From Escherichia coli phage KS_S14: a stretch of 64,000 nt of DNA. The DNA is taken from sequence record LC788706.1. The stretch is one strand, 5' to 3'. The translations under genes were made by a program, and so were the position numbers. The notes beneath the pieces were generated by a model, which worked only from the letters and a program-made list of their open reading frames with translations, did no database searches and had not been told where the DNA came from. Of the stretch, positions 13,080 to 17,731 are shown in pieces (position 1 is the stretch's first letter; the number at the start of each line of letters is the position of its first letter).

Positions 13080-13502
13080 ATGAGTACTGAAAATAGAGTT
13101 ATAGACTTAGTAATAGATGAAAAAGTACCTTATGGTCTAATGATGCAATTCTTAGATGTTGATGATAGTACTTATCCACCTACAAATACCCCTGTTAACT
13201 TAACAGGGTATTCCCTAAGGGGTACTATAAAGGCGGGGCTTGATGAGAACGCGGAAACTTTGGCATCTTTTACTACTAAAATTATTGATGCTGCTCAAGG
13301 TGCTATAGCTATAAGTTTACCTGTAGAGGCGGTAGATAATATTGGTGAAAAAGCTACCAAAGAGAGAGATAAGTATAACCCTCGCCAACGTTTTGCAGGA
13401 TACTATGATATAATTATGACACGAGATGTCATAGGATCAGCTATTAGCTCTTTTCGTATAATGGAGGGTAAAGTATTTATCAGTGATGGGGTAACTAGAT
13501 AA
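13080..13502 (+). CDS. tail collar protein (T5 p132-like)
   Basis: 140-aa ORF between central-fibre and side-fibre genes; size and synteny. Confidence 0.5.
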
Positions 13503-15175
13503 TGGCAATAACTACTAAGATTATTGTACAACAAATATTAAATATTGATGATACTAAAGCTACTGCTAGTAAATTTCCTAGATACACAGTAACTCTTGGA
13601 AATTCTATTAGCTCTATTACTGCTAATGAGTTAGTATCTTCTATAGAGGCTGCTGCTAAATCTGCTGCGGCTGCAAAAGATTCTGAAATAGCTGCTAAAA
13701 CCTCAGAACTTAATGCTAAGAACTCTGAACAGAAAGCTGCTATTTCTGCTACTGAAGCAGGAAAACAAGCTACTAATGCTGCTAATAGTGCTAATACTGC
13801 TAAAACTGAAGCCGATCGTTCAAAAACTGAGGCTGATAGATCAGAAGCTGCTGCTAATTCTACCCCCGACATTCAACCTCTTCCAGATGTATGGATACCG
13901 TTTAACGATTCTCTAGATATGATCACCGGCTTTGCGCCAGGCTATAAAAAAATAACAGTCGGTGATGAGGAAATAACACTGCCCAGTGACAAGATTGTTA
14001 GCTTTACACGTGCATCAACTGCGACATATATTAATAAATCAGGTGTATTAACTGTTGCGGGGATTGATGAACCTAGATTTGAAAAGGATGGTTTGCTCAT
14101 TGAGGGGCAAAGAACTAACTATCATCTTAACTCACTTACGCCATCTAAGTGGGGAGCTACAACAAGTGTAACTATAACAGAAAGTGGTGTTGATGAGTTT
14201 GGATTTACTTATGGGCGGTTTCAAATAAAGGACGAAAAAATTGGGACAAATACGGCAATGAATATCGCTGCGATTTCAGGAGGAAGAGGTGTCGATGTTA
14301 CCGGAACTGAAAAGTATGTTACAACATCATGTCGTGTAAAAAGCGATAGTGCTAATATACAATGTCGTATAAGATTTGAAAGATATGACGGATCCGCATA
14401 TTTTTATCTAGCAGATGCATATCTTAATATAACAGATATGTCCATTAGAAAAACGGGAGTAGGGGCTGCAAGAATAACCGCCCGAGCGGAGAAAGAATCT
14501 AATGGATGGATTTATTTCGAGGTTACATATCAATCTGAAGCTATTGATAATATGGTTGGCTCTCAGATCCAAATTGCTCCACCTGTTTCACCTGGCACTT
14601 ATTCTGGTGGAGAGTACTTACAGGTAGCTACCCCTCAAGTTGAAGGCGGGGCGTGCGCTTCATCGTTTATTATTACAGAAGCGACTCCAGTAACACGGGC
14701 AAGCGATATGGTCACATTACCAATAAAAAACAACCTTTACAATTTGCCGTTTACAGTACTTGTGGAAGCTCATAAAAACTGGAGTATAACGCCAAATGCA
14801 GCGCCACGTGTTTTTGATACCAGCGGTCATCAAACCGGAGCGGCTATTATTCTTGCTTTCGGATCTGCCGAAGGCGATAATGATGGTTTCCCTTATTGCG
14901 ATATAGGTAAATCAAACAGAAGGGTTTACGAGAATGCAAAACTAAAAAAGATGATCATGGGAATGAGAGTAAAGAGTGATTACAATACTTGCTGTGTAAG
15001 TAATGCCAGAATATCAAGCGAAACAAAAACGGAATGGAGATACATACAATCAACGGCTACTATAAGGATTGGAGGACAAACAACTACGGGCGGACGTCAT
15101 CTTTTCGGGCACGTTAGAAACTTTAGAATCTGGCATAAGGAACTAACTGATAGACAAATGAAGGAGTATGTATGA
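13502..15175 (+). CDS. L-shaped side tail fibre proximal subunit (LtfA-like) with C-terminal LamG/ConA-like lectin domain
   Basis: 557 aa; N-terminal Ala/Lys/Ser-rich coiled region; C-terminus ends RHLFGHVRNFRIWHKELTDRQMKEY, resembling the terminal strand of LamG-type jelly-roll domains. Confidence 0.6.
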   Translation: MAITTKIIVQQILNIDDTKATASKFPRYTVTLGNSISSITANELVSSIEAAAKSAAAAKDSEIAAKTSELNAKNSEQKAAISATEAGKQATNAANSANTAKTEADRSKTEADRSEAAANSTPDIQPLPDVWIPFNDSLDMITGFAPGYKKITVGDEEITLPSDKIVSFTRASTATYINKSGVLTVAGIDEPRFEKDGLLIEGQRTNYHLNSLTPSKWGATTSVTITESGVDEFGFTYGRFQIKDEKIGTNTAMNIAAISGGRGVDVTGTEKYVTTSCRVKSDSANIQCRIRFERYDGSAYFYLADAYLNITDMSIRKTGVGAARITARAEKESNGWIYFEVTYQSEAIDNMVGSQIQIAPPVSPGTYSGGEYLQVATPQVEGGACASSFIITEATPVTRASDMVTLPIKNNLYNLPFTVLVEAHKNWSITPNAAPRVFDTSGHQTGAAIILAFGSAEGDNDGFPYCDIGKSNRRVYENAKLKKMIMGMRVKSDYNTCCVSNARISSETKTEWRYIQSTATIRIGGQTTTGGRHLFGHVRNFRIWHKELTDRQMKEYV

Positions 15176-15450
15176 GAGATATAATCCTAAAATTCACGGA
15201 TAAATCAGCATATAAAGATTTTCTCTTAAAAATAGAGTGGGATACTAATGAAAATTTGCAAAACCAAATAATGCTTGACGAAATTGGATATACTTATACT
15301 GAAATCTCTCCGCTAGGTGATGAGGAACCTAGATGCATCCGTAATGAAGGGTATTATATTAATGTAAGGATTCTTGATGAATCCTTTACTTACGAATCCT
15401 TCGAGCCTTTTATAGTTCAGCTAGAACAGCCTCTTAGAGTATGGGCATAA
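15172..15450 (+). CDS. hypothetical small protein in tail fibre locus
   Basis: 92-aa ORF translationally coupled (ATGA overlap) to the LtfA-like gene. Confidence 0.45.
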   Translation: MRDIILKFTDKSAYKDFLLKIEWDTNENLQNQIMLDEIGYTYTEISPLGDEEPRCIRNEGYYINVRILDESFTYESFEPFIVQLEQPLRVWA

Positions 15451-15459
15451 GGTTTTATA

Positions 15460-17228
15460 ATGGTAACTAAAACAGTAATTCCTACGGATATTACAAAACT
15501 TAAAAATGAGTCACTTAATAAAAATAATAACCTGAGTGACTTAGCAGACCGTGCAGCAGCATGGCTAAATGTGCGTCCTATTGGATCTACCCCTCTTGCT
15601 GGAGATCCTGTTAGTGACTATGATGCCGCAACTAAGCGTTGGGTGGAGAACAAACTTAATACTGGCACAGTAGGACCCACAATGAATGGTGTTATGAACT
15701 ACGGGGTGGGGGATTTTCATCTTCGAGATAGCCGTGCGTATATTCAACCTTATGAGGTAGTTTCTGATGGGCAGCTTCTTAACAGGGCTGACTGGCCTGA
15801 ACTTTGGGCGTATGCACAAATGGTTGGAGCTATAGATGATTCAGTTTGGTTAGCAGATGTAGGACAACGTGGGAAATATTCTACGGGAGATGGTACCACT
15901 ACTTTCCGCGTCCCAGATCGTAATGGTGTGCAACTAAATTCAATCAAAGGGTTATTCGCTCGTGGTGACGGTGGGGGGATGCTGGTCAAGCTGGTTCAAT
16001 ATCAGAAGCTGCAGCACCCAATATTACTGGTAGTTTTCCTGGCGCTATTGCTGGTGCATATGAAGAAGCGCTTAATAGATATTCATCTAGATTTGGTCTT
16101 ATTGGGGCGATTGGTGGTGAAAACGGCTTAGGTGCCGCTCCTGGAGGTGCATCTAAATCATTCGCCGTAGTTAATCCTGATAACCAATACGGATTTAGTT
16201 TTGATGCAAACTTAGCGGACCCTGTTTATGGGCGTTATGGAATAAAAGGTACTATTATTCCAAACAGCTTTATAGGTGTCTGGGTAATCCGTGCTTCTGG
16301 TGGGTTCGTGGCTGCAAAGACTTCGTGGAGTGTTATTAGTGGTGATGCTGTCAAACCTAATACTGGTACTACTGTTTATGGCGGGAGTGTACTATCTGAG
16401 TATAAAGTAGGTACTAGTAGTGAGGCTGTAAGTACACTACGAGCTAAAGCTACTATTGGTGGCACCTACTCTACTGAACTACTAATAGACAATAAATCTA
16501 CCGGTAAATCGAATTCCGCCCAGCTTGTAGATAATGGGGATTTTGTAACGGATCGTTTTAAAGCTAGATTAGTTACTGGCATGGCGTGGTCTCAGACTGG
16601 CTGGGTACAAGGTACTCTTTCTCAGAACGAGGTCAATATAGGTAGTACATTTAACTTTAATAGTATATTGAGCGGTTCCCAGTCTTCTTCCGCAGGGTAT
16701 AAGACATCTGCACATTTTGGATTAATTCATAATGACTTAGGCTCATTTGCAGATTCTTGTTGGCAGGTAGCGGGAGATGATGATAATAAATTTGGTGTGC
16801 GTTTAAAAATTCAGCCGAATAATAATAGTATTTATTTTTATTCTTGGTGGCCAGGTGCTTCAGCAACCTATACTTTGCAATTAAATGCTGTATCTGATTC
16901 TCGCTTAAAGCATGATATTAAGGCTATAGACGCAACTAAGTCCATCGAGGTATTAAAAGGATTAGAATTCCAATCCTTTGTATATAATAACGATGAAAAA
17001 TCTCGTGTCCGACGTGGGGTTATTGCTCAGCAAGTAGAGACTATAGAACCACTTTATGTAAAAACTAGAAAATTTTATAATGATGACGGAATAGAGCAGG
17101 AGCAAAAGGAATTAGATACAACTCCAATGCTTCTTGACACTATGCATGTTGTGCAAGATCTTATTAAACGGATTGAAGATCTAGAGAAAGAGCTTGAGCA
17201 ATTAAAGGTACAATTAGTATCACAATAA
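15460..17228 (+). CDS. side tail fibre distal subunit (LtfB-like): tail-collar domain + C-terminal S74-type intramolecular chaperone; reading frame interrupted at a G6 run
   Basis: Frame 1 (15460-15977) encodes collar-like motif (SDGQLLNRADWPELWAYA...TTFRVPDRNG); frame 0 opens after TGA at 15966-68 and continues to 17228 with Gly/Ala-rich fibre sequence and C-terminal chaperone-like block (SDSRLKHDIKAIDATKSIEVLKGLEFQSF...). Junction is GGGGGG at 15973-15978. Confidence 0.55.
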
Positions 17229-17231
17229 AAG

Positions 17232-17270
17232 AAAACCCCAGTGGACAAAATCCACTGGGGTTTATTATTT
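17232..17270. terminator. bidirectional terminator between convergent tail-fibre and dut genes
   Basis: 10-bp stem CCCCAGTGGA/TCCACTGGGG, loop CAAAA, A/T runs on both sides. Confidence 0.75.
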
Positions 17271-17284
17271 ATTTTATATGTAGA

Positions 17285-17731
17285 TTACTTACTTCCTGAA
17301 CTTCCAAATCCTCCTTCTCCACGTACAGTCTCTTCTAACTCATCAACGATTTCAAAATTATGAGTTGAGTAATGTGGCAATACCACTAGCTGACAAAGTC
17401 TCTCGAAATTCTCCAGAGTTTGCATTTCAGAACCGTAATTATAGAGGTTCATCTTAATAGTACCACGATAGTCTGAGTCGATCACCCCTGCGGTGTTTGC
17501 AATCATCAAATAGCGCTTACCTAAAGAGCTACGAGGAACCACCAAACCGAACCAACCTCGCGGAATTTCTACCGCGACACCGGTGTCAATCATTAGGGAT
17601 TTGCCTGGCGCAATAGCACGTAAATCTGCGGCAGGGTTTGTACCAAAGAATGCTCGCAGATCCATACCTGCGGCATCTTCGGAACCAATCTTAGGCATAC
17701 AATCTGGATTAGTTAATTTAATTTTAATCAT
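17285..17731 (-). CDS. dut: dUTP diphosphatase
   Basis: 148 aa; dUTPase motifs (AGMDLRA, AGVIDSDYRG, C-terminal GGFGSSG). Confidence 0.85.
   Translation of the reverse strand: MIKIKLTNPDCMPKIGSEDAAGMDLRAFFGTNPAADLRAIAPGKSLMIDTGVAVEIPRGWFGLVVPRSSLGKRYLMIANTAGVIDSDYRGTIKMNLYNYGSEMQTLENFERLCQLVVLPHYSTHNFEIVDELEETVRGEGGFGSSGSK

Follow-up and report, generated by a model that had tools for sequence, protein, structure and literature searches.

A frameshift at a length-variable G tract splits the lateral tail fibre gene ltfB in the T5-like Escherichia coli phage KS_S14

Does a tail fibre gene that falls into two reading frames at a short run of G residues record a sequencing error, a genuine inactivating mutation or slipped-strand phase variation of a host-range gene? 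The question is raised by Escherichia coli phage KS_S14, of which a 64,000-nt stretch of sequence record LC788706.1 (hereafter the window) was analysed, and in which the distal lateral tail fibre (LTF) gene ltfB is divided at a run of six G residues (G6). The comparisons described here indicate that the missing nucleotide probably reflects a real −1 mutation by strand slippage at a recurrent hot spot, which would create an OFF allele of ltfB and a phage devoid of LtfB.

The G6 tract occupies positions 15973–15978, exactly where the original prediction had placed it; read directly, positions 15970–15979 are GGT GGGGGG A, in the codon context GGT GGGGGG ATG. The open reading frame (ORF) beginning at ATG 15460 encodes 173 sensible residues ending in ...FRVPDRNGVQLNSIKGLFARGDGGG (FARGDGGG), followed by 50 out-of-frame codons and a stop at 16129–16131, giving a 223-aa product, and the frame terminating at TAA 17226–17228 is open back to the tract. 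Addition of one G to the tract yields the junction ...ARGDGGGDAGQAGSIS... / ...GDGGGDAGQAGSISEAAAPNITG... and a 589-aa protein that is 100% identical to the 589-aa MAR004NP2_00162 (VCU43556.1) of phage vB_Eco_mar004NP2 (mar004NP2; PMC6563131), where the tract is G7; this recovers the anticipated single gene, about 590 aa in length and interrupted by a one-nucleotide deficit. By tblastn, residues 1–176 of the mar004NP2 ORF matched frame 1 (15451–15978) and residues 176–592 matched frame 3 (15975–17225), each with 100% identity. A compensating indel restoring the frame was ruled out, since neither half departs from the reference protein and translation in the first frame stops at 16131. The parts of the divided gene are as follows.

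15460–15978, plus strand: 5′ part of ltfB, codons 1–173, comprising the N-terminal region and a collar-like motif; 100% amino acid identity to mar004NP2
15973–15978, plus strand: G6 homopolymer and frameshift site; the closest relatives, with an intact gene, have G7
15979–16131, plus strand: out-of-frame tail, 50 nonsense codons and stop, of a KSS14E_0930-like 223-aa product; found in BEU75852.1 and in Logan contigs
15978–17228, plus strand: 3′ part of ltfB, codons 174–589 and stop, shifted to the −1 frame with respect to the 5′ part; fibre body, receptor-binding region and chaperone
16893–17051, plus strand: Peptidase_S74 intramolecular chaperone domain (PF13884), coordinates computed from the frame of 15978

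The repaired protein aligned with LtfA of phage DT57C (PDB 8hqz_d, 1076 aa) over residues 526–1072 of the latter (E 6e-135), with no break at the junction, and matched tail-fibre PHROG 6921. Peptidase_S74 (PF13884) was detected at residues 479–531 (E 3.4e-12), in agreement with the S74-type chaperone-like C terminus that had been predicted. The tail-collar-like motif of the same prediction, DGQLLNRADWPELW...GDGTTTFRVPD, is visible by eye and by alignment and is repeated in DT57C LtfA, although the Pfam Collar domain did not score at E≤0.01 in the repaired protein. An AlphaFold2 monomer model built from a 35-sequence alignment had a mean predicted local distance difference test score of 44.6, and of about 22 near the tract, too poor to place the Gly run. 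Locus position, the S74 C terminus and homology to DT57C LtfA are indicative of an ltfB-type distal subunit, the name ltfB being taken from orthology to MAR004NP2_00162 (orf135), itself named an ltfB orthologue (Michniewski et al. 2019, PMC6563131). In DT57C-type phages, LtfC anchors LtfA, and a second, distal branch, separate in its O-antigen specificity, is made of LtfB (PMC4728585, PMC10713586), so that the label "distal side-fibre gene" is apt.

If the missing G were an artefact of homopolymer sequencing, other genes of the window might be broken in the same way. The window is a mosaic relative of mar004NP2, with 91–99.6% identity by segment: an 18.7-kb segment flanking ltfB is 99.6% identical, other segments 91–98%. 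When all 129 stop-to-stop ORFs of at least 100 aa from the homologous mar004NP2 regions were compared with the window by tblastn, a single one was split, namely ltfB, with both halves 100% identical. A recent event is suggested, since ltfB is the only split ORF and neither half has diverged at the protein level. The G tract was also the sole 1-nt indel within the 18.7-kb segment. The window holds 38 A/T runs of at least 6 nt and two C6 runs, and because the other genes are unbroken despite these, a platform with general homopolymer trouble is unlikely; homopolymer error in the window is not pervasive. The only other single-base homopolymer differences from mar004NP2, at 2842, 3742, 50746, 50773 and 52225, fall in A/T runs of segments with greater divergence and leave every reference ORF of at least 100 aa unsplit. 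Unlike mar004NP2, which has a 796-aa ltfA, the window carries an ltfA that is 717 nt (239 aa) shorter owing to in-frame loss of an Ala/Ser/Thr/Lys-rich, ASETNAK-like coiled-coil shaft; the deletion junction lies at imperfect 15-nt repeats, 13736–13750 (GCTGCTATTTCTGCT / GCTGCTAATTCTGCT). The ltfA shaft also varies across relatives, in proteins of 557, about 564, 685 or 796 aa.

Is the shortened tract private to KS_S14? G7 is the common state, observed in mar004NP2, PMBT29, phC17, phA11, one IMG/VR contig and several ENA and Logan assemblies. The ltfB of phA11 contains two further G runs (G6 and G7), at nt 1237 and 1330, in the C-terminal receptor-binding part. G6 was found in independently assembled Logan contigs representing three ltfA structures and two ltfB haplotypes, from the following samples.

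SRR31518524: G6; 5 single-nucleotide polymorphisms relative to the window and a different ltfA deletion junction
ERR11474195: G6; lacks the ltfA deletion and is otherwise identical to mar004NP2
ERR4623046: G6; identical to the window
SRR13300666 and one more sample (product P0136): G6; divergent haplotype, 54 mismatches in 450 nt upstream

A second out-of-frame length, G8, was present in ERZ19211393 (a 107.9-kb SPAdes contig of the mar004-type haplotype) and in SRR23801862 (an 87-kb contig of the divergent haplotype). In the latter, Logan contig SRR23801862_7840 encodes at 691–2226 a single fused LTF gene with an LtfA-like N terminus, a shaft and an LtfB-like module; G8 truncates this gene at 511 aa, and the whole lateral fibre of that phage would be lost. 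Salmonella phage SPLA5b carries G10, its sole indel in 8.1 kb, which adds one Gly. In JLBYU40, Lindwurm, WP85 and PH204, four of the 11 database phages carrying the module, a synonymous GGA interrupts the tract (GGGGGAG), and all four are in frame. Each Logan sample showed a single allele among the contigs returned. Pattern scans yielded one G7 contig in IMG/VR, one relevant G7 contig plus two unrelated matches in JGI/ENA metagenomes, and no tract carriers among GTDB genomes. Tract length thus appears to vary among independent isolates, between ON and OFF lengths and by independent events, and by sequence comparison the minimum history would comprise two −1 events and two +1 events, each independent, plus one +3 event.

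Ten homopolymers of at least 6 nt in the 8.77-kb region around ltfB were compared across 13 independent close relatives, with the following unpaired length changes.

ltfB, G7: unpaired indels in 7 of 13 relatives
ltfA, A7 to A8: 1 of 13 relatives (Logan ERR5898689), gene split
ltfC, (AG)4 to (AG)3: 1 of 13 relatives (PMBT29)
Various genes, eight 6-nt runs including those in nuclease genes: 0 of 13 relatives

The adjacent nuclease genes showed no unpaired indels in the 13 relatives, and these per-repeat counts confine all unpaired length changes to the three lateral-fibre genes, a distribution that fits the LTF loss and locus instability described by Golomidova et al. (PMC4728585). In PMBT29 (PP554579.1, locus ~473–480), the 2-nt loss in (AG)4 frameshifts ltfC, which is annotated as two hypothetical proteins, and constitutes another slippage-type knock-out in the lateral-fibre locus. 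In ERR5898689_301, ltfA is split (genes 2–496 and 462–1706) and ltfB, with G7, is intact on the same contig. An ltfB of a different allele type also reads as split, by mutation or by error, in the records of E. coli phage NG_A1 (LC788705.1, at ~2358, by T6 to T5) and Salmonella phage VSe12 (by three single-base indels). VSe12 was discounted as evidence on account of those three indels in its record, as was the G13 tract of CPL00229 (OR896837), whose 8-kb locus holds three other homopolymer indels.

The most plausible origin of the G6 allele is slipped-strand mispairing, in which G7 (GGT GGG GGG GAT, encoding G-G-G-D) would have lost one G. The predicted truncated product, of 173 native and 50 nonsense residues, would be deprived of the fibre body, the receptor-binding tip and the S74 chaperone; with no chaperone for trimer folding, no LtfB trimer would be expected to form or attach, and virions would be devoid of the LtfB branch, an expectation that draws on knowledge of S74 intramolecular chaperones and on the DT57C model. 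LtfC, the shortened in-frame LtfA and the central receptor-binding protein would be retained, such that growth on rough hosts would be kept and LtfB-conferred O-antigen specificity lost. The OFF allele may have reached consensus frequency through selection on rough hosts, lateral fibres being presumably dispensable or costly on hosts with no matching O-antigen. Consistent with such a course, loss of LTF function was seen in approximately 30% of the plaques obtained with DT571/2 from rough E. coli C600, in a locus described as genetically unstable (PMC4728585); phage repeats of at least 6 nt are reported to mutate at ~3e-4 (bioRxiv 10.1101/2025.10.21.683753). Because slippage is bidirectional, a G6 stock should hold a minority of G7 revertants.

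Several observations weigh against a genuine mutation at a hot spot. The G6 calls, for this record and the Logan contigs alike, rest at the level of assembled sequence, and the two homopolymers hit by indels are the two longest (7 nt), as length-dependent sequencing error also predicts. Four of the G6 sequences share one ltfB haplotype, such that identity by descent, rather than separate events, is possible among them. The record of CPL00229 has clear further homopolymer errors, and no paper was found on the SRA/ERZ sample accessions. Finally, the exact frameshift products were looked up deliberately, which inflates the OFF fraction; intact alleles are in the clear majority, and one intact variant (P0130) occurs in at least 40 index blocks. 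Some of these points favour the explanation that the phage is truly G7 with an intact ltfB and that the missing G is a sequencing or assembly error, as do the tract being the longest G/C homopolymer of the region, the homopolymer errors evident in the same gene of other T5-like records (four indels in CPL00229, three in VSe12) and the zero decay of either half, which an error would likewise give. Such an error is nevertheless improbable, as the 128 other reference ORFs are unbroken despite the A/T and C6 runs noted above, and independent assemblies of at least four other read sets, differing in genetic background, gave the same G6, with G8 assembled too. Illumina-type sequencing is not expected to give a majority consensus error at a 7-nt run. 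A private error, one of three options offered by the original prediction, is therefore disfavoured by the lack of any other broken gene and by G6 in independent read sets. Two explanations that accept G6 as real and dispense with loss of function are each very unlikely. Full-length LtfB could be made from G6 by programmed −1 ribosomal frameshifting or transcriptional slippage, and if the P-site tRNA-Gly slipped by −1 on GGG GGG and GAT were read next, the exact wild-type G-G-G-D would result. However, most relatives encode the protein in one frame, so that a two-frame arrangement is not conserved; the zero frame contains no canonical X XXY YYZ heptamer; and the 102 nt downstream (15979–16080) fold with a minimum free energy of −21.8, whereas shuffled versions average −26.5 (z = +1.44), so that the native sequence does no better than shuffles. 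A run of six G residues is also short for slippage by RNA polymerase. Alternatively, the split might yield two functional products, a 223-aa N-terminal protein and a 306-aa C-terminal protein from GTG 16308 or another internal start: gene callers annotate both, as exact matches among the NCBI proteins of KS_S14 (BEU75852.1, 223 aa; BEU75853.1, 306 aa), and GGTGG lies directly upstream of GTG 16308. Yet in relatives one undivided gene matches the two pieces at 100% identity, and making the pieces alone would forfeit some 110 residues that lie between them and leave the C-terminal protein with no N-terminal attachment region. Nor is the arrangement conserved, ON alleles being dominant.

A genuine slippage allele, as favoured by the G6/G7/G8/G10 variation, may additionally be adaptive, such that the tract is a selected contingency locus at which ON/OFF switching of the LtfB branch, together with in-frame G7/G10 variation, hedges host range and adsorption. 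This would refine, rather than exclude, recurrent slippage at a hot spot, and it is a tentative possibility: the slipped-strand option of the original prediction is favoured as to slippage, be it as adaptive phase variation or as a hot spot under relaxed selection. An in-frame homopolymer of at least 6–7 nt sets the reading frame (G6 here, G7 in the intact allele), and variation is recurrent in both directions, on several haplotypes, and includes both ON and OFF lengths. The gene helps to determine host range, and losing it can be an advantage under some conditions (PMC4728585). Precedents exist in the poly-G tracts of Campylobacter phages (Sorensen et al. 2021, cited in PMC10877375) and in T2/T4 loci (10.1101/2025.10.21.683753). 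In contrast, chance alone would be expected to give a tract of such length, with one run of G≥6 in the 64-kb window versus ~2.8 expected, and GGG-GGG at one of 60 Gly-Gly pairs versus ~0.8 expected. The tract is specific to one recombining module and absent from other LtfB alleles, a synonymous interruption is found in four of the 11 database phages that have the module, similarity among the carriers is too high for a conservation test, and repeats are under-represented in tail-fibre genes of BASEL phages (10.1101/2025.10.21.683753). Run and codon-pair counts, the interruption and the absence elsewhere thus gave no sign of a tract maintained or over-represented beyond composition. What does exceed chance is that the tract breaks an otherwise perfectly conserved gene.

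The neighbourhood is that of a T5-like (Tequintavirus) late region, in the order pb4, ltfC, an ltfA-type gene, a 92-aa ORF, the split ltfB, a bidirectional terminator, convergent dUTPase, flap endonuclease, D14 and D13. The features flanking ltfB are these.

13080–13502, plus strand: ltfC, collar protein anchoring the L-shaped tail fibres; 140 aa, intact; PF23926 LtfC, E 8.4e-15; annotated as collar in relatives
13502–15175, plus strand: ltfA-type proximal fibre gene; 557 aa, intact; PHROG 1419, with a T5 pb1-like N terminus (phrog_5481, phrog_24369)
15172–15450, plus strand: 92-aa ORF between ltfA and ltfB; phrog_1361, E 1.9e-32; in all relatives examined
17233–17263, no strand assigned: bidirectional intrinsic terminator between ltfB and convergent dUTPase; 13–14 bp stem with T-runs on both strands
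17285–17731, minus strand: dUTPase, convergent with ltfB

The 92-aa ORF overlaps the ltfA stop codon by 4 nt and keeps a constant place between ltfA and ltfB in this lineage; it may act in fibre assembly or as an adaptor.

This locus resembles that of DT57C and DT571/2 (Golomidova et al. 2016, PMC4728585; Ayala et al. 2023, PMC10713586) in the order of ltfC, ltfA, ltfB and convergent dUTPase and in a C-terminal S74 chaperone, with the strong homology to 8hqz_d (E 6e-135) given above. Shared in kind are the dispensability of LTF genes on rough hosts and the frequent emergence or sweep of LTF-less mutants, and in-frame deletions and fusions are known at the DT57C/DT571/2 locus too. Unlike the allele described here, the published mutants of DT57C-type phages had lost 3 bp, had undergone large deletions or fusions, or carried engineered nonsense mutations, with no homopolymer hot spot reported; the present lineage differs further in its ltfA and in the extra 92-aa ORF. 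In Campylobacter phages (Sorensen et al. 2021, Cell Rep 35:109214; cited in PMC10877375), poly-G tracts likewise vary in a structural or host-interaction gene and give ON/OFF variants and phenotypic diversity, with several loci per genome and variation within populations shown experimentally. KS_S14 differs from these in having a single G7-type tract of chance-level size, known from comparison between samples only. Campylobacter phage tracts are reportedly longer, at about 9–13 G. Reversible single-base slippage that frameshifts a non-essential gene and generates heterogeneity is also the basis of the T2/T4 contingency loci (Gomez, Barrick & Waters 2025, 10.1101/2025.10.21.683753); that study concerns agt, rIIA and many other genes, includes T5-like phages only in its bioinformatic count of BASEL phages, finds tail-fibre genes depleted in repeats and holds no survey of natural ON/OFF alleles across isolates. 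The kind of switch is therefore already known from Campylobacter poly-G tracts and T2/T4 loci, and frequent LTF loss is known in T5-like phages, but not via a homopolymer.

No paper on this G run was found in the literature on T5-like phages, frameshifts or homopolymers, and tail fibres, and none on KS_S14. The window itself contains an ordinary recent loss-of-function frameshift; the wider interest lies in the recurrent polymorphism in public data. Lateral tail fibres decide which O-antigen strains are infected by T5-like phages, which serve in biocontrol and therapy cocktails, and several of the relatives compared here are candidates for biocontrol or therapy against Salmonella or E. coli O157. 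If ltfB is flipped by one G run, stocks can silently shift in host range during propagation on rough laboratory hosts, and "split tail fibre" annotations in genome records may reflect biology, not error. The frequent fibre-less mutants noted in 2016 would have a simple, testable molecular cause, at least in this lineage. Should the tract prove to be a contingency locus, it would be a switch without precedent among the siphovirus receptor-binding fibres of coliphages, would keep T5-like populations mixed in O-antigen host range and adsorption, and would explain at the molecular level the "unexpectedly high rate" at which LTF-less mutants arise. With ON and OFF alleles already in public data, ltfB may serve as a natural test case for the idea of phage contingency loci.

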